Shown: piece after piece, positions 97 to 43,739 of the stretch
How positions within the stretch are numbered: the first letter of the stretch is position 1
How the letters are laid out: each line of letters starts with the position of its first letter
From: Pseudomonadota bacterium
Lineage (GTDB): Bacteria; Desulfobacterota; Desulfobacteria; Desulfobacterales; JBDRRP01
DNA length: 64,000 bases
Assembly (NCBI GenBank): GCA_043825735.1
Contig: JBDRRP010000027.1
Location: forward strand, 1 to 64,000
Direction: 5' to 3'
Made by a program: the position numbers and the translations under genes
The notes under the pieces: model-generated
What the model was told of the DNA's origin: nothing
Database searches by the model: none
The model's input: only the letters and a program-made list of their open reading frames with translations

Positions 97-232
97 TGAA
101 ATACTCGTAAAAAGTGATTTTGAACCGCAGAGACCGCAGAGGACCGCAGAGAATATGTTTAATAATTAATCAGTTGTCTCTGCGCTCTCTGTGTCCTCTG
201 TGGTGATTTCAGGTTTTTTAACTTGGCCATCA
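97..232. mobile_element. MITE-A (~135 bp, TGA..CGTAAAAAG / TTTTTA..CATCA ends) carrying triple-7-mer inverted arms
   Basis: Imperfect terminal inverted repeats with AAAT on both sides (93-96, 233-236); internal arms AACCGCAGAG x3 / CTCTG(C/T)G x3. Confidence 0.7.
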
Positions 233-12405: not shown

Positions 12406-14229
12406 TTATACAACACGGCGGAACAGTTTCTCCAGGTCCCGCGGCGTCCATTGGATCCACAGCGGACGGCCGTGAGGGCAGTGGGAGGGGTTGCTGCAAC
12501 CGGCGAGTTGCGTCAGCAATGTCTGCATTTCAATCATGTCGAGGCCGTGATTGGCGCGGATGGCATCGTGACAGGCGATGCGCTGGATGATCGGCTCCAG
12601 CAGCCCCGCGGGCGACAGTGTGCGGCCGGCGTCGAGGGCCTTTTCAACCAACGCCCTGAGAATGGGTTCTACAGCGAAACGGGCCAGCAGCGCGGGTACG
12701 GCAGTCATCGCCCAAGTCGTGCCGCCAAAGGGCTCCAAAGCAAAACCGAGGCGCTGCAGCGCCGGCAGCATTTCGGCAAGAACATCCGCTTCCCGAAACC
12801 CGAAATCAAGGGTGTCGGGCATGAGAAGTCTCTGAGCAGCGGGCTTTTCCCGTTCGCTCTGCCGGATCAATTCTTCGTACACCACCCGCTCATGGGCCGC
12901 GTGCTGGTCGATCACCACCAGCCCGGCCGTACTCTCGCACAGAATGTAGGTCCCCGTGTACTGCCCGATGACCCGAAGATCTTCATACCGAAACGGCGCC
13001 TCCCCGGTCGACGGGGATGTCCCCTGGTCTTCAGCATCCACGGAATCGCGCTTCAGGTGCGCCGGCGCAGCAGGCGCAAAAAGAGATCCCGCCGCCTGTT
13101 TTTGCCCTTCACCGGCCGAAGGCCGCCATATATTCTTCGGCAAAGCCGAAGAATATGGACGGATGTGCTCGCGCAGTTGTGCCGCCACAACGGGAGAAGG
13201 CTCGCGTGAAATGGAAATGGATTCAATGCTTCCGCCGGGATCGCTGCTTCGAAGCGCTGTCATGACACAGCGAACGATATGGTCATGCACCAGTCGCTGG
13301 TCGGCAAACCGGATCTCGTGCTTGGTGGGGTGCACGTTGACGTCCACCCGATCCGGCGGCACCCGGATAAAGATGACGGCCACCGGATACTGCCCGCGCA
13401 TGAGCCTGCCGCTGTAGCCGGCCATGACTGCATGCTGCACCACCCGATCCCGGACAAAGCGCCCGTTGACATAGGTGTAGATCCCCCTGGAGGTGGCGCG
13501 GTTATGGCGACCGGGCAGACACCAGCCGGTCACTGAGACACCGGCTGTCTCGATATCGATGGGCAGCAGATCTGAAGCGGCCTCCGGCCCGAGCACATCG
13601 GCCACGCGCACGCCCCCGTCAACGGCCGCCGGCCAATCCTTGACCCCGCTGCCGTTGTGCGTGAGGGTAAAGCGCACCCCCGGGTTGCCCAGTGCAATGC
13701 GCGAGACCGTGTCCCCCACATGCCCCATCTCGGTATTGACCGTCTTGAGAAACTTGCGGCGGGCCGGCGTGTTGAAGAAAAGCTGGCGGATGGTGATCAT
13801 GGTGCCGGGGGGCGCGCCGGTGGCCGTCACGGACAGGATCTTACCGCCCTCGACATTAATGCAGGTGCCCTCATCGGCCTCGGCTTCACGGGTGACCAGC
13901 TCCAACCGGGACACCGAGGCGATGCTCGGCAGCGCCTCGCCACGGAATCCCAGGGTGGCGATGGCAAACAGATCGTCGTCGCTGTAAATCTTGCTGGTGG
14001 CGTAACGCTCCAGCGACAGCAGCGCATCGTCGCGGTTCATCCCGGCGCCGTTGTCCGCCACCCGAATGAGGGAGCGCCCACCGCTTTCCACATCCACCCG
14101 GATCTGGGTGCTTGCCGCATCCAGCGCGTTTTCCACCAACTCCTTCACCACCGAGGCCGGCCGCTCCACCACCTCTCCGGCAGCGATCTTGTTGGAAATG
14201 ATCTCGGGTAGAATTCTTATCCTGGACAT
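12406..14229 (-). CDS. mutL: DNA mismatch repair endonuclease MutL
   Basis: IAAGEVVERPASVVKELVEN, GFRGEAL, DQHAAHER, CPHGRP. Confidence 0.97.
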   Translation of the reverse strand: MSRIRILPEIISNKIAAGEVVERPASVVKELVENALDAASTQIRVDVESGGRSLIRVADNGAGMNRDDALLSLERYATSKIYSDDDLFAIATLGFRGEALPSIASVSRLELVTREAEADEGTCINVEGGKILSVTATGAPPGTMITIRQLFFNTPARRKFLKTVNTEMGHVGDTVSRIALGNPGVRFTLTHNGSGVKDWPAAVDGGVRVADVLGPEAASDLLPIDIETAGVSVTGWCLPGRHNRATSRGIYTYVNGRFVRDRVVQHAVMAGYSGRLMRGQYPVAVIFIRVPPDRVDVNVHPTKHEIRFADQRLVHDHIVRCVMTALRSSDPGGSIESISISREPSPVVAAQLREHIRPYSSALPKNIWRPSAGEGQKQAAGSLFAPAAPAHLKRDSVDAEDQGTSPSTGEAPFRYEDLRVIGQYTGTYILCESTAGLVVIDQHAAHERVVYEELIRQSEREKPAAQRLLMPDTLDFGFREADVLAEMLPALQRLGFALEPFGGTTWAMTAVPALLARFAVEPILRALVEKALDAGRTLSPAGLLEPIIQRIACHDAIRANHGLDMIEMQTLLTQLAGCSNPSHCPHGRPLWIQWTPRDLEKLFRRVV

Positions 14230-14255
14230 ACGTGCCTATAGCGCTCGATGGTTTC

Positions 14256-14338
14256 ACCACGGAGTCACGGAGAACACGGAGATTTGTTGTCAAAACCAAT
14301 ATTATCTTTCTTCTCCGTGGCCTCCGTGACTCCGTGGT
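14256..14338. repeat. Empty triple-CACGGAG inverted arm pair
   Basis: ACCACGGAGTCACGGAGAACACGGAG-31 nt-CTCCGTGGCCTCCGTGACTCCGTGGT. Confidence 0.85.
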
Positions 14339-14348
14339 TAACAGTCTT

Positions 14349-14522
14349 TTATTTCAGTTCGTCCGCACGGGCGAGGTACTCCATTTCGGCGGGCGAAAGG
14401 TTGAACTTGGCACCGGCTTCGTTGATGATTTTCTTGAGCGGTTTTTCCGGGTTCGCCTTGCGCGCTTCGGAGATCCACTTGACGGCGTTTCGAAGATGAT
14501 CACCTGAGGGTTGTATCGACAT
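14349..14522 (-). CDS. Small hypothetical protein (57 aa)
   Basis: SD AAAGG; helical sequence; co-directional with the operon. Confidence 0.65.
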   Translation of the reverse strand: MSIQPSGDHLRNAVKWISEARKANPEKPLKKIINEAGAKFNLSPAEMEYLARADELK

Positions 14523-14545
14523 GATTTTTCCTTTCAAAAAAAATG

Positions 14546-15037
14546 AACCACGGAGTTCACGGAGAACACGGAGAATTTAATCATAAAACCATTCGAGTAA
14601 TTCCGTCTTTAAGCAATGCCACATTGAAATTGATCAGTAGCCCGACCGACAACTCCGAAATCTTTAAGTAAGAAAGCAATTGCGCCTTGTGAATCGGCAA
14701 GATTGCCTCCACTGCTTTCAGTTCAATGATGAGCTTGTCTTCCACCAGAAAGTCCAGACGATAACCGCAATCAAGCTGAACACCCTTGTAATGAACTGGA
14801 AGTGAAATTTGCCTCTTGAAGATGATCCGGTTTAGCACAAATTCATGTGCAAGGCATTGCTCATAAGCTGATTCCAGCATGCCCGGTCCGAGTTGCCGAT
14901 GGACCTCCACGGCGCAGCCAATTACCTTGCTGGTCAAGTCTTCGAATTCCACTTTCTCCATCCCCTGGTCACGGCGGTGTCGTCACTCGGGAAACGTTTT
15001 GATTTTTTTCTCCGTGTCCTCCGTGTCCTCCGTGGTT
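14546..15037 (-). mobile_element. GxxExxY cassette bounded by triple-CACGGAG inverted arms
   Basis: Arms at 14546-14573 and 15010-15037; the upstream arm overlaps the gatA stop codon. Confidence 0.65.
14581..14961 (-). CDS. GxxExxY protein (PD-(D/E)XK nuclease-like)
   Basis: GMLESAY motif; RLDFLVEDKLIIELK; GLLINF. Confidence 0.92.
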   Translation of the reverse strand: MEKVEFEDLTSKVIGCAVEVHRQLGPGMLESAYEQCLAHEFVLNRIIFKRQISLPVHYKGVQLDCGYRLDFLVEDKLIIELKAVEAILPIHKAQLLSYLKISELSVGLLINFNVALLKDGITRMVL

Positions 15038-16496
15038 AAAAAGCCGGCTTTCTTTTATGATGATCCGTCACCTGCTCAAAGGCGTGCGCCACCCGAAGCA
15101 GCGTCGCTTCATCGAAATGCTTTCCCATGAGCTGCATCCCGATGGGCAGCCCCGAGTCGGAGAAGCCGCAGGGCACCGACATGCCGGGAATACCGGCCAG
15201 GTTGGCGGACAGGGTGAAAATGTCGCCCAGATACATGGTGAGCGGGTCATCGGTATTCTCGCCGATTTTAAACGCCGGTGTCGGCGCGACCGGAGAGACG
15301 ATGACATCGCAACCCGTGAATGCCCGGGTGAAATCGTCCCGGATCAGGGTCCGCACCTGGGAGGCCTTGCCGTAGTAAGCGTCGTAGTATCCGGCCGACA
15401 GGCAGTAGGTCCCGATGATGATGCGCCGCTGAACCTCGGCGCCGAACCCGGCCGATCGGCTTGCGCGATACATGTCCAATATGCCGTCGGCACTCCGATC
15501 CCGGAAGCCGTATTTGACCCCGTCGTAGCGTGCCAGGTTGCTGCTGGCTTCCGAAGGCGCAATGACGTAATACGCGGCAACGGCATAGCGGGTGTGCGGC
15601 AGCGATATGGGCTTCACCGCAGCGCCAAGGTTCTTGAGTGTTTCGACGGCGGCCTGAACCGCCGACCCCACCTGGGGGTCCAGCCCGTCGGACCCGCTGT
15701 ATTCTTCGGGGATGCCGATGGTGATGTCTCTGATATCTCCGGTCAGTGCGGCCGAAAAATCCGGCACGTCCCGGGGGGCCGAGGTGGAATCGGCAGGGTC
15801 ATGGCCGCAGATGGCATTCATCAGGATGGCGCAATCGCGCACATCCCGGGTGAGCGGGCCGATCTGATCCAGTGACGAGGCAAACGCCACCAGCCCGTAC
15901 CGGGATACCCGGCCATAGGTGGGCTTCATCCCCACCACGCCGCAGTGGGAGGCCGGCTGCCGGATGGATCCGCCGGTATCCGAGCCCAGGGCGCCAAGGC
16001 ACAGCTCGGCGGCAACGGCGGCGGCCGAGCCACCGCTGGAACCGCCGGGAATGCGCGTCAGGTCCCAGGGGTTGCGGGTCACCTGCAGACCTGAATTTTC
16101 GGTTGACGATCCCATGGCGAACTCGTCCATGTTGAGTTTACCTAGTATCACGGTGCCGGCATCGTTGAGCTTTGAGGCCACGGTCGCATCGTATGGCGGC
16201 ACAAAATTTTCAAGAATCCGTGAGGCGCAGGTGGTTCTGATCCCGCGGGTGCAGATGAGGTCTTTGAGTGCCAGAGGGATGCCGGTCAGGGGCCCCTGCC
16301 GGCCTTCGGCGATGGCCTTGTCGGCGGCATCGGCCGCCAGAAGCGCCTTGTCGCTGGTGACGGTGATAAAGGCGCCGATCTTGTCATCAACCGCCGCGAT
16401 GCGCGCCAGCACCGATTCGGTCAGTTCCCGTGCGCGGATCTCCTTTTTAGCCAGCAGATCGCCCGCATCGTGAATGGTCAGTTCATAAAGTTCCAT
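15036..16496 (-). CDS. gatA: Asp/Glu-tRNA amidotransferase subunit A
   Basis: Amidase signature [30 protein letters not shown]. Confidence 0.97.
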
Positions 16497-16528
16497 AAAA
16501 GACCCCTTAAATATCTATAATAGCCGTC

Positions 16529-16688
16529 TGATGGCTTCGAAAAAGCGTTAAATCACCACAGAGGGCACAGAGAGCGCAGAGGTAAGTAATTAATTGAACT
16601 CTCAACGAGCCACTGCGATCTATGGTTCAAAATCACTTTTCACGAACTCAATATTTAACTCTGCGTTTCTCTGCGTCCTCTGCGGTTA
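16529..16688. repeat. Degenerate MITE-A plus an extra triple-7-mer arm
   Basis: ACCACAGAGGGCACAGAGAGCGCAGAG; GGTTCAAAATCAC; CTCTGCGTTTCTCTGCGTCCTCTGCGGTT. Confidence 0.7.
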
Positions 16689-16690
16689 AA

Positions 16691-17080
16691 TCATCTGGTT
16701 ATGCGCTTATCATTTTTAAACCTAAGGATGCCGCTCTTTAGCCTTGCAACGTTGAAATTAATCAACAGCCCAGTGCTGATACCAGACAGTTTCATATAAG
16801 TCAGTATCTGTGCCTGGTGAATCCCTTTGATTTCATCAACGGCCTTGAGTTCAATGATTAGCCGGTCGTCAACGACCATATCTATACGGTAGCCGCAATT
16901 GAGAAGTATGCCCTTGTACGCCACCGGCAACGGATGCTCCAGTTTGAAGGATACCCCATTGAGGTGAAGTTCGTGTGCAAGGCATTGTTTATACGTCGAT
17001 TCGAGTAATCCTGGTCCCAATGCGCGATGAACATCAATGGCACAGCCAATTACCGTTCCGGTGAGGGGATCTCTCTTCAT
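16691..17080 (-). CDS. GxxExxY protein, second copy, between gatC and gatA
   Basis: GLLESTY; RIDMVVDDRLIIELK; ATG directly preceded by the arm remnant GGGCACAGAGAA. Confidence 0.9.
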   Translation of the reverse strand: MKRDPLTGTVIGCAIDVHRALGPGLLESTYKQCLAHELHLNGVSFKLEHPLPVAYKGILLNCGYRIDMVVDDRLIIELKAVDEIKGIHQAQILTYMKLSGISTGLLINFNVARLKSGILRFKNDKRITR

Positions 17081-17131
17081 TTCTCTGTGCCCTGCAATTG
17101 TCATTTCGAATGCTTGTCGAACTGCACACGG

Positions 17132-17419
17132 CTACTCGATCACACGCGGCACAATGAATGCCTCTTCTGAGCGCTCAGGGGCATTGGCCAGCGCGGATTC
17201 CCGGTCGAGGTGGGTGTGTTCCACGTCCTCGCGGAATGCGTTGGTCAGCGCCGTGGCATGCGCGGTGGCCGCCACACCGGCGGTGTCGACGGCTTTGAGC
17301 TGATCCACGTAATCGAGAATATCGCCGATCTGCCCGGCAAACCGGTCGATGGCCCCCTCATCCAGATCCAGCCGGGCCAGTTTGGCCACGGTTTGAACTT
17401 CCTCCCGAGAAATCTTCAT
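17132..17419 (-). CDS. gatC: Asp/Glu-tRNA amidotransferase subunit C
   Basis: VAKLARL, NAFRED, NAP, FIVPRVI. Confidence 0.95.
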   Translation of the reverse strand: MKISREEVQTVAKLARLDLDEGAIDRFAGQIGDILDYVDQLKAVDTAGVAATAHATALTNAFREDVEHTHLDRESALANAPERSEEAFIVPRVIE

Positions 17420-17472: not shown

Positions 17473-17556
17473 AACCACAGAGACACGGAGAACACGGAGG
17501 TTTTAAATTAACATCAAGATCTTTTGCTTTCTCCGTGTCCTCCGTGCCTCCGTGGT
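17473..17556. repeat. Triple-7-mer inverted arm pair (MITE-A-like)
   Basis: AACCACAGAGACACGGAGAACACGGAG ... CTCCGTGTCCTCCGTGCCTCCGTGGT. Confidence 0.85.
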
Positions 17557-17603: not shown

Positions 17604-18269
17604 TTACTTTCTGATAACCATCGCTCCTTTTGCGACGGCGCCCATCTTCAACTGGGCGGCTTCTGCGGCTTCCCTGTCCGGATATGCTCCCACGCGCACG
17701 CGATACCACACGCCTTTGTCCGGAATCTCGATGGATTCCCGGTAGGCCGGATACCCTTGCTTTTTTAGTTTTTCGACCATCGCCGCTGCGGCCTCGCCTT
17801 CTTTCATGGAGGCCACCTGCAGGATATACGGTCTCTCAGACGTTTCTGCCGGGGCCGTCGCAGCCGGCGCGGGCCGATCCGCCGGCGCAGTTGCCGGTGA
17901 AGCGGCCGGCTTCGGTCGGTTGACGGCCGGGGGCGTTGCCCCTGCCGCGGCGCCAGCTGGGGGCGCAGCCGGCGGATCGGCGGGGTTTCGCAGAACTTCC
18001 CGGAACTTCATGGGGCGCCGGTCGCCGGGGGTTTCACTTTCGATCCGGTATCGCTGCGCGTCTTCCCTGAAGGCTTCCGCGCGCAGGGATTTCAGTCTTT
18101 CCTGAATTCCGGGGATGTCAAATTTGACGGGAGCGGTACCCCGCCCTACGAAAACGCCTACGGTAAACATGAATACCGACAGCAGCAGCAGCCCCAGCAG
18201 TTTCTGCAACAGCGGCGGCCGGCGGCCGCTGTCCGATGGGGAGCCTGTTTCTGTGCGCTGTTTTGCCAT
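17604..18269 (-). CDS. SPOR-domain membrane protein (FtsN/DedD-like)
   Basis: TM helix, Pro/Ala linker, YILQVAS..WYRVRVG; follows argS. Confidence 0.85.
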   Translation of the reverse strand: MAKQRTETGSPSDSGRRPPLLQKLLGLLLLSVFMFTVGVFVGRGTAPVKFDIPGIQERLKSLRAEAFREDAQRYRIESETPGDRRPMKFREVLRNPADPPAAPPAGAAAGATPPAVNRPKPAASPATAPADRPAPAATAPAETSERPYILQVASMKEGEAAAAMVEKLKKQGYPAYRESIEIPDKGVWYRVRVGAYPDREAAEAAQLKMGAVAKGAMVIRK

Positions 18270-18350
18270 TATCCGGATCGGGGATCCACTATGCATTCGC
18301 CATTTTCCCATATAGCACGGAAACGGCGAATCAGATTATGTGTTAGCACC

Positions 18351-19240
18351 AAGTCTGAAATCACCACAGAGGACGCAGAGGGCGCAGAGATAACTTACTA
18401 ATTATTTCGTATATTCTCTGCGGCCCTCTGCGGTCTCTGTGGTTCAAAATCGCTTTTTACGGATTCATCAAGTCTCATATACAAATCCGAAAAGCACCGG
18501 GTCGACCCCATGCGAACGCACGTTGCCTTGAGCGGTGATCACTTCACGGCGTCAAAGCGGCATAAGCGCCGCACCAGTTGAACCTGGAATTTCTCTGCGC
18601 CCCTGCGTCTCTGCGCGAAAAACGCTTTACGCTTTTCTACGAAACGCCAGTTTAGCATCAAAGGCCTGTGCTCCTCGATGACATTGTGAGATCACCAGTC
18701 ACGGAGGGCACGGAGATTTTATTTATAAAATCAACCGCTTTTAATTTTCTCTGAGTCCTCCGTGGTTCAAAATCCCTTTGGATAGCAGCGACACCTCGAT
18801 CGGATCCTCGTGACTTTGCCCGCCTCCCCCTCCCCTGGCCCCTCCCACGAGGGGAGGGGAATTTATGGATATGCATTATTCTCCGGCTAAGGTTCTGGGT
18901 GTTTCGTAGGGGAGGGGTTCATCCCCTCCCGCAATCGGCTAAGATGCCCCCAACCGTTCTTTTACACCGAGCACGGGCGGGGATCAGCCTTCGCCAAGGC
19001 TTCCACCGTCGCTGCGCTTCCGCCGTCGCTACGCTATGGCGGACAAGACGGCGGACACGTAAACCCCGCACCCGACACGATTGAGTGCCCCCCGGTGCCC
19101 ATATGGAATGCAGCGATGGGCGCTCCGATGCAATCGGCGAATTTTTTATGTTCAAACAGCGCCTGACCATTAGCTGGAGAATAGTGCATAACCAGATTGA
19201 ATTATTAGCAAGTTACCTCTGCGCCCTCTGTGGTGATTCC
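18351..19240. repeat. Composite repeat field: MITE-A (18351-18470), arms, CCCCTCCC hairpin, MITE-B (18868-19195)
   Basis: Modules recur across the window. Confidence 0.75.
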
Positions 19241-25178: not shown

Positions 25179-25439
25179 TGACGGTCCTGAAAAAGTCCCA
25201 AAGCGTGTCACCCCGGCGACTTGTCCGCCATAGCGCAGCGACGGCGGAAGGCCGGGGTCCAGAAGTGCTCGAAATCACTGGATCCCGGATCTCGTTTCAC
25301 TCGTCCGGGATGACGAAAAAAATCTGAAATCACCACCGAGGACACAGAGAGCGCAGAGATAACTGATTAGTAATCCGAGCTTTCCTCTTCTTCCCTCTGC
25401 GTACTCTGTGGTTCAAAATCATTTTTTACGGATCCATCA
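25179..25439. mobile_element. MITE-A containing a CGTC-type REP doublet with a 29-bp micro-insertion (25220-25248)
   Basis: TGACGGTCCTGAAAAAG ... TTTTTACGGATCCATCA; CCCCGGCGA[insert]AGGCCGGGG. Confidence 0.7.
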
Positions 25440-30517: not shown

Positions 30518-30701
30518 ACCACGGAGTGCACGGAGAACACGGAGAGAAAAAAACTTTAACAACAATGGGTTATTAATAATTCCGCATGCTTCTTGTTGAT
30601 CAAAAAAGGGCAGTTTGGCAATAACCGTTGAGGATGTACTGGAGCGTCATAGAGACCGGGTTATTTTTTAAATCTCTGTGTTCTCCGTGTACTCCGTGGT
30701 T
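30518..30701. repeat. Triple-CACGGAG inverted arm pair with a ~130-nt spacer between the two atpE genes
   Basis: ACCACGGAGTGCACGGAGAACACGGAG ... CTCTGTGTTCTCCGTGTACTCCGTGGTT. Confidence 0.85.
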
Positions 30702-42900: not shown

Positions 42901-42986
42901 AACCACGGAGTCACAGAGGACACGGAGATTTTATAGTCAAAATCAATACCATTTGCGTTTCTCCGTGCCCTCCGTGACTCCGTGGT
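42901..42986. repeat. Empty triple-CACGGAG arm pair
   Basis: Closely similar in arms and spacer to 14256-14338. Confidence 0.85.
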
Positions 42987-43187
42987 GATCACAATGTCAT
43001 CGGGAACACCGGTCGTTCACGCTAAACTGGAGCTTCATAGATACGCGGAAATTGTTTTTAGGGTATTCTTCGTGCACTTCGCCTCCTTCGTGGTTCCGAA
43101 CGCAGATCTGTTTTAGCGACCATGCCTCATGTCGTAAGAGCACTGCCGGTTGACGGTGAGACGGGGGGATGCTTAAATCGGCCCATC

Positions 43188-43607: not shown

Positions 43608-43739
43608 TGGCTATGAAAAAAGTCTCAAATCACCACAGAGGACGCAGAGACCACAGAGATAACCCATTAATTATTATACATATTCTCTGCGTCCCTCTGC
43701 GCTCTCTGCGGTTCAAAATTACTTTTTTCGGTTTCATCA
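43605..43739. mobile_element. MITE-A (135 bp)
   Basis: TGATGG..TTCATCA ends with ATCT duplicated (43601-43604, 43740-43743). Confidence 0.75.

Follow-up and report, generated by a model that had tools for sequence, protein, structure and literature searches.

Two genes of the GxxExxY family that lie within the gatC-gatA-mutL gene row of contig C27 (positions 1-64000, the whole 64,000-nucleotide stretch analysed here and called the window) belong to a class of small minigene cassettes that is widespread, insertable and bounded by hairpins. The window belongs to a 6.8-Mb genome in 160 contigs with a GC content of 57.5%, which is referred to as G000, and other G and L labels denote the genomes and loci of relatives. 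In its general form, the cassette consists of a T-N-A-C-C outer tag, three CRCRRAG words in a 9-nt phase, a nuclease gene of about 380 bp and an inverted array, and such cassettes occupy operon spacers, often at a stop codon and almost always in sense orientation. Together with its arms, the gene looks like an undescribed selfish nuclease-plus-repeat element, and literature searches on the family name and on the names of intervening sequences (IVS) returned no published description of a GxxExxY gene-plus-arms unit. The explanation that we tentatively prefer, and to which we would give slightly less than an even chance, is a partnership between nuclease and repeat, housed in an insertable minigene cassette that resembles an IVS, in which the nuclease would recognise its own arms.

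Anatomy of the two cassettes

GxxExxY#1 (14581-14961, minus strand) encodes a 126-aa protein with a PD-(D/E)XK fold and is flanked by inverted 28-nt arms at 14546-14573 and 15010-15037, the core of which is the word CACGGAG repeated three times with a 9-nt period and preceded by an ACC tag. The upstream, gatA-side arm (15010..15037, minus strand) reads AACCACGGAG-GA-CACGGAG-GA-CACGGAG on the gene strand and starts within the gatA stop codon (TTA at 15036-15038 on the plus strand), and the downstream arm (14546..14573, minus strand) consists of CTCCGTG three times followed by GGTT. When extended to 14546-14586 and 14997-15037, the arms measure 41 nt each and are 83% complementary, and both arms are paired in the minimum-energy fold of the sense transcript (z -4.8). 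An initial annotation of the window had placed this gene between triple-CACGGAG inverted arms with the upstream arm starting in the gatA stop, and the coordinates of that arrangement are confirmed.

GxxExxY#2 (16691-17104, minus strand) splits gatC from gatA. It is a 137-aa open reading frame (ORF) in which the family match starts at residue 14, and its likely start is the ATG at 17080. The arm remnant that had been reported before this ATG amounts to one heptamer (CTCTGTG-CCC, or GGGCACAGAG on the gene strand) at 17083..17092 on the minus strand, which stands directly before the start codon and could pair with the central word of the right arm (16557-16581), to which it is complementary. Downstream of the gene and before gatA lies a complete gene-less hairpin (16557-16684, within the interval 16555..16690) with CGCAGAG/CACAGAG words and a 77-nt spacer. 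Both genes are AT-rich relative to the host and foreign in composition to their neighbours (46% against 62% GC), their higher AT content having been noticed from the sequence; the GC content is 0.457 for GxxExxY#1 and 0.464 for GxxExxY#2, compared with 0.62-0.63 in mutL, gatA, gatC and the SPOR-domain gene.

Recurrence of gene and arms

The genome G000 carries seven GxxExxY genes, all seven with heptamer arrays in their flanks. When the inverted-repeat score of the flanks was ranked among 6095 crude ORF-genes of G000, six of the seven reached or exceeded the 99th percentile (a score of 29), and GxxExxY#2, with a score of 24, stood at the 97.7th percentile. Of the 301 genomes sampled across the phylum, 99 carry GxxExxY, and the flank score was at least 30 at 19 of 29 loci from other genomes, compared with a maximum of 29 in 106 shifted control windows. 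The suggestion that GxxExxY flanks are enriched for inverted triple 7-mers therefore holds both here and elsewhere in the phylum, where most of the aligned arms follow the form ACC-CRCRRAG x3. Co-orientation with the operon, which had likewise been remarked on for the two window genes, proved general, since 26 of 28 cassettes share their strand with the genes on either side (binomial p 3e-6).

The arms keep to a single class of words even though protein identity has fallen to 39-63%, and such constancy across deep divergence suggests a sequence-specific reader tied to the cassettes. Within that class, the type of arm tracks the protein tree, a point that the initial annotation had proposed for testing: a tree of 28 rows separates a GAT/GAC-arm clade of 7 rows from a GAG-arm clade of 21 rows, with two changes of arm-type label, compared with at least four in each of 500 shuffles. 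Both clades are present in G000.

Gain and loss among relatives

The minus strand of the window carries, in order, a SPOR-domain gene (17604-18311), gatC (17132-17419), GxxExxY#2, gatA (15036-16496), GxxExxY#1, a 62-aa ORF termed orf62 (14349-14537) and mutL (12406-14229), all on that strand, as established from ORFs and profile searches. The order SPOR-gatC-gatA-orf62-mutL is conserved in 28 same-order relatives, and the two GxxExxY genes are nearly absent from it. None of the 26 visible gatC-gatA gaps, many of which are only 10-25 nt long, holds GxxExxY, and it occupies one of 24 gatA-orf62 gaps. Empty alleles, which the initial annotation had expected of a mobile unit, are thus found in relatives at both sites. 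The single occupied gap belongs to G030, a member of another family, where the protein is 61% identical and its CACGAAG arms start two bases past the gatA stop codon. A relative of the same genus, G001, has a CGCAGAG-type hairpin before gatA like that of G000, but lacks gene #2. A metagenome scan with GatA gave a best relative of 74% identity, and no close empty site is therefore available from which the exact insertion borders could be read. No target duplication was seen by eye around the 16 of 27 gene cassettes whose arms were found by a strict regex.

Genome G282 contains three copies of a cassette, with 99% identity over the first 300 nt and less in the 3' parts; upstream, the flanks of the copies bear no relation to one another, and common sequence begins about 10 nt outside the left arm. 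These three cassettes lie within 3 kb (L191, G282:C3:168300-173300), among small ORFs and a second repeat of 133 nt.

The gatA-orf62 spacer holds other cargo in relatives, including a HicB/HicA-like pair (L018:937-1337 in G018, a weak match slightly below the cut-offs), a PIN_3 gene preceded by a small ORF (L024:3076-3721 in G020) and a decayed cassette of the S23p family with CTGAAGG arms (L017:2953-3351). Because the cargo differs among relatives, this spacer can be regarded as a landing spot for small selfish genes. The neighbouring orf62 keeps the same position between gatA and mutL in 24 of the 28 same-order relatives, with 41-70% identity in 23 of these and one weak match of 25%, and matches nothing in Pfam or NCBIfam. 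Two relatives have a match to GxxExxY immediately upstream of the SPOR-domain gene (L016:36-191 and L024:1-240), on the side where G000 has a gene-less hairpin at 18365-18441 of the repeat family called family A below.

The GxxExxY protein

GxxExxY (PF13366) is a large family of no known function. Both window proteins match its profiles over their full length and above both curated cut-offs: for TIGR04256 (GxxExxY), the values are E 9e-46 and 154.9 bits for GxxExxY#1 and E 1e-42 and 145.1 bits for GxxExxY#2 (cut-off 35), and for PF13366 (PDDEXK_3), they are 147 and 140 bits, respectively (cut-off 22). In an alignment of 28 sequences, G27, E30 and Y33 of the GxxExxY motif are invariant, as are D70, E80, K82 and Q94, so that the active site is conserved. 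The AlphaFold model, which is confident (predicted local distance difference test, pLDDT, of 95), shows a minimal PD-(D/E)XK domain. In fold it most resembles Cas4 SSO0001, R.SwaI and BpuSI (Z 7.6-7.7), followed by Hjc (6.3) and others, a level that is generic for the PD-(D/E)XK fold, and the PD-(D/E)XK homing endonuclease I-Bth0305I is among the weak matches. A sequence search of the PDB with GxxExxY gave no match at E up to 1. Assignment of the genes to a PD-(D/E)XK-fold family, as made in the initial annotation, is supported by the PF13366 match, the conserved D70, E80 and K82 and the fold of the model; its further statement that no function has been established agrees with a 2012 survey of the superfamily, in which the function of PF13366 is listed as 'Unknown' (PMC3424549).

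Gene-less hairpins and their co-occurrence with the gene

Gene-less hairpins carry the same arms without a gene and behave as dispersed repeats resembling repetitive extragenic palindromes (REPs) or miniature inverted-repeat transposable elements (MITEs). Within the window, a loose detector found 42 triple-7-mer arm loci of all families, in line with the earlier impression that gene-less copies are numerous, and a strict regex found 8 complete CRCRRAG hairpins, missing the one at 42901. In the gene row, the mutL/orf62 interval holds a CACGGAG hairpin (14253..14341; RNA fold -50.5 kcal/mol, z -8.7), and the gatC/SPOR-gene interval holds a further gene-less hairpin (17474..17556; z -9.2) that carries the outer terminus of family A at its left end. 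Further along the window are a CACGGAG/CACAGAG hairpin (42901..42988; z -8.1), a CACGGAG arm pair (30518..30700), a CGCAGAG hairpin (126..202), a hairpin with two words per arm (25343..25410), and, besides the family-A hairpin upstream of the SPOR-domain gene (18365..18441), a family-A-type hairpin (43634..43710) with the loop ATAACCCATTAATTATT.... The claim that the arm pair recurs with only a short spacer stands for 14253, 17474 and 42901, where the spacers measure 31-33 nt; the pair at 30518 is real, but its spacer is 129 nt. As RNA, gene-less hairpins have z values of -6 to -9. An Rfam search of the window returned no family at the gathering score, with only chance matches to miRNA hairpins at 11 loci.

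Across G000, the strict count is 172 CRCRGAG, 72 CRCRAAG, 3 CRCRGAT and 5 CRCRGAC hairpins, and their polarity is absolute, since in all 252 hairpins CRCRxAx forms the left arm and its inverse the right arm, and the opposite arrangement occurs in none. Family A, of about 113-150 nt, comprises 135 full-length copies with 73-100% identity and sharp ends. It has terminal inverted repeats (TIRs) outside the heptamer core and a flanking direct repeat at an AANNTT-like target, where the two variable bases (NN) agree between the two sides in 33 of 72 copies, compared with a shuffled mean of 5.6 and maximum of 15. No transposase parent of family A was found in the 160-contig draft, which has 5 pairs of ends separated by 1-4.4 kb. 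Of the ORFs that were scanned between paired hairpins or ends, some match NadA, acyl-CoA dehydrogenase, DprA, a DinB-like polymerase or further housekeeping families and others match no family, but none matches a transposase.

Family A is underrepresented between divergent genes, where 13 of the 122 copies of defined context lie, although such gaps make up 999 of the 4959 intergenic regions of the genome. Its orientation is not biased relative to transcription (36 same, 43 opposite), and no sense-strand bias was seen in RNA stability for the hairpins (61 vs 65, p 0.69) or for the cassette arms of GxxExxY (8 vs 5) and S23p (9 vs 7). Because neither strand nor orientation is favoured, there is no sign of selection on RNA rather than on DNA.

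The gene and the hairpins co-occur across the phylum. The hairpin pattern was detected in 62 of the 301 genomes and a reversed control pattern in none, and GxxExxY was found in 48 of the 62 hairpin-positive genomes compared with 51 of the 239 others (odds ratio 12.6, Fisher p 4e-16, kinship ignored).

Other repeats of similar build were noticed in G000. The SPOR-domain gene, standing between the two independent hairpins at 17474-17556 and 18365-18441, reaches a flank score of 49 without being a cassette, and nadA, dprA and other housekeeping genes elsewhere are likewise bracketed by hairpins. A second hairpin family (for example at C4:62923-63005 and C9:72873-72954) has CGCGCAGAG words with an 8-nt period, a conserved 40-nt loop and conserved outer flanks TATAATTCATATCT ... 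AGAACATCTTTTTG; its BLAST coverage is about 90 over the arms, cross-hits between arms included, and about 45 over the loop. A separate tandem repeat, highly abundant and about 9 nt in period, is also present, with words like AACGATCCC / CCCAACGAT and hundreds of triple-word hits. Small ORFs of G000 with strong flank repeats were considered as further cargo families and rejected, as their translations looked by eye like those of spurious ORFs in repeat DNA.

S23p cassettes and likeness to known systems

A second protein family occurs in cassettes of the same type. In G000, five matches to PF05635 (S23p, '23S rRNA intervening sequence protein') lie between inverted arms that consist of short units in tandem, with a different unit in each cassette, and four of the five have flank scores above the 99th percentile. 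S23p is present in 153 of the 301 genomes, and such arms were found at 26 of 30 loci, with very diverse units (control windows: maximum 35, 95th percentile 22). Two different S23p genes of G000 (C15:27857-28500 and C151:12235-12900, L001) have in common a conserved motif of about 25 nt (GCGCCTATACGGCTTAA.AGCGAC) in the stretch from the arm to the gene start, where one of them carries it twice; locus L001, with the C151 copies, has no Rfam match.

The closest published anatomy, which the initial annotation had not mentioned, is that of the 23S rRNA IVS of Coxiella burnetii and Leptospira, which carries S23p. The Coxiella IVS has been described as having a 28-bp terminal stem that is cut by RNase III and three tandem GACAGAT heptamers before the S23p ORF, and older proposals that the IVS ORF serves mobility are mentioned there (PMC4990558). 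Given this shared build, GxxExxY cassettes can be viewed as IVS-like elements living in operon spacers. In both cases, an ORF of about 0.4 kb lies inside TIRs that form a stem of about 28 bp, predicted in the present case, with about three heptamers per arm, and the element, regarded as selfish, sits inside a host transcript. They differ in that the host is 23S rRNA for the IVS and the space between protein-coding genes of an operon here, that S23p is a four-helix bundle with abutting heptamers whereas GxxExxY is a PD-(D/E)XK nuclease with 9-nt spacing, and that hundreds of gene-less copies accompany the present cassettes. The 23S rRNA was looked for and is not present in the G000 assembly, which precludes an IVS comparison in the same organism.

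RAYT is a tyrosine (Y1, HUH) transposase of the IS200/IS605 type, and movement of that type leaves no target duplication, whereas one hairpin family here shows one. The gene in the present cassettes is, by Pfam and NCBIfam, only PD-(D/E)XK / GxxExxY and not an HUH transposase. A further difference is that REPs are single palindromes of 20-40 nt in doublets, whereas the present repeats are arrays of phased heptamers. The likeness lies in a gene flanked by members of a dispersed hairpin family and present in few old copies; REPINs are dispersed hairpin-forming repeats tied to the gene they flank, with repeat groups that match paralogs (Bertels and Rainey 2011, PMC3116915). The analogy to RAYT/REPIN with another nuclease fold, drawn in the initial annotation, is therefore apt as a description, given the recurrence, the empty sites, the numerous gene-less copies, the co-occurrence and the tracking of the protein tree by the arms; its implication that the nuclease moves the hairpins gained no support, and hairpin genomes that lack the gene, the transposase marks of family A and the S23p cassettes weigh against it.

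A nuclease-plus-repeat system is also provided by the GIY-YIG nuclease Ssn, which binds and cuts ssDNA (single-stranded DNA) at the SRM/NTS repeat and modulates natural transformation, as shown by experiment in a study where 42% of gene homologs were repeat-flanked on both sides and 81% of repeat-rich genomes had the gene (Chenal et al. 2025, PMC11893778). The two systems differ in the repeat and in the nuclease fold (GIY-YIG vs PD-(D/E)XK), and the function of GxxExxY is a putative one. Likeness to MITEs is confined to family A, with its TIRs and target duplication; the differences are that the heptamer-hairpin core is common to gene cassettes, that no duplication is visible around cassettes, and that no parent transposase was found.

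Possible mechanism and competing explanations

In the mechanism that we propose, the GxxExxY gene would be read through from the host operon, and its arms would close a stem of about 28 bp around the gene in vivo, as in the ORF-bearing 23S rRNA IVS. GxxExxY would most likely be an active nuclease recognising the phased-heptamer arms as a hairpin, a cruciform or ssDNA, and contact with the arms might keep the gene and the repeat family together and help the repeats to persist or spread, as RAYT does for REPINs and Ssn nucleases for SRM/NTS repeats. GxxExxY may cut DNA and may have some role in movement. That it is a nuclease specific for both sequence and structure, reading phased CRCRRAG arrays on hairpin or ssDNA, and also drives the spread or upkeep of the hairpins we consider plausible, though less likely than not.

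Several observations weigh against such a role. The association across genomes ignores kinship, 14 of the 62 hairpin-positive genomes lack GxxExxY at E 1e-10, and when 10 of these (completeness 92-100%) were rechecked at E 0.01, 9 remained without the gene and 1 had a broken fragment. One genome without GxxExxY, G247, keeps a multi-copy hairpin family with identical copies. Conversely, 51 of the 99 GxxExxY-bearing genomes have no hairpin by the strict pattern. Numbers within G000 are also poorly matched, as 172 CRCRGAG and 72 CRCRAAG hairpins face 3 or 4 genes while 3 GAT-type genes face 3 hairpins, and the GxxExxY paralogs are old, with 39-60% identity. Simple descent of gene and arms together would also make arm type follow the protein tree. 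The TIRs and target duplication of family A indicate a staggered-cut transposase, and we know of no staggered-cut transposition by a lone PD-(D/E)XK domain. Finally, S23p, which has no nuclease fold, occurs in the same cassette type, and the architecture therefore needs no nuclease.

The main rival explanation holds that the hairpins are the primary element, a vehicle like a REP or MITE that a host enzyme or an unlinked one moves in trans, with GxxExxY and S23p minigenes as passengers in the loop; the arms would serve as an RNA stem, cut by RNase III, that frees the passenger from the operon RNA, and the nuclease would leave them untouched and serve another purpose. We regard this as a serious possibility, if a somewhat doubtful one. 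It accounts for hairpins that thrive without GxxExxY, for the transposon-like ends of family A, for the presence of two unrelated protein families in one architecture and for the sense orientation of the cassettes, and co-descent alone would explain the agreement between arms and protein tree. The stem of about 28 bp is, moreover, like that of the Coxiella IVS, which RNase III cuts (PMC4990558). It is opposed by the lack of a transposase partner, since none was found and the family-A end pairs 1-4.4 kb apart enclose none, by the strong co-occurrence of gene and hairpin, and by the missing sense-strand bias in RNA stability. The arms themselves argue in the same direction, because those of GxxExxY keep one word class (CRCRRAG, 9-nt phase), whereas those of S23p comprise many unrelated units.

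Two further explanations are minor rivals. In a homing-type process, which we judge improbable, the nuclease would cut those empty hairpins whose arms are of its own class, either in the loop or at a cruciform, repair by arm homology would convert them to cassettes, and the hairpins would spread by other means. The gene indeed takes the place that the loop has in a gene-less hairpin, the G001 hairpin before gatA marks a locus that has both gene and hairpin in G000, the mosaic copies of G282 look as left by gene conversion, and homing endonucleases of the PD-(D/E)XK fold exist, I-Bth0305I being among the weak fold matches; however, arms of about 28 bp offer very short homology, only 7 of about 250 G000 hairpins hold a gene, those being old paralogs, and no recent conversion was seen in G000. 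Still less probable is an addiction or defence module, in which the nuclease would be a toxin or defence effector restrained by structured flanks or a host factor and persisting like a toxin-antitoxin system: the genes are small, AT-rich and patchy (99 of 301 genomes), and the gatA-orf62 spacer holds the HicB/HicA-like pair of G018 and the PIN_3 gene with its small upstream ORF in G020, but the cassette has no second gene, known RNA antitoxin repeats are far longer than the 9-nt arm words, and hundreds of gene-less hairpins and the S23p cassettes would be left unexplained.

Implications

Cassettes of this kind account for an annotation puzzle, namely small AT-rich genes that split conserved operons such as gatCA. 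Linking PF13366 to a defined array of DNA words also offers a direct and cheap assay, in which the protein is combined with its own arms. If the nuclease does read the arms, GxxExxY would represent a new, programmable-looking family of site-specific nucleases, as with Ssn; hundreds of intergenic hairpins in genomes of the phylum would be explained, and the long-unexplained ORF-bearing 23S rRNA IVS would be tied to a general class of operon cassettes. A partnership of this kind, if true, would be the third independent one between a nuclease and a repeat after RAYT/REPIN and Ssn/SRM, built on a PD-(D/E)XK scaffold, and together with S23p it would define a super-class of minigene cassettes resembling IVS, with operon spacers and also 23S rRNA of many phyla as the places they colonise.

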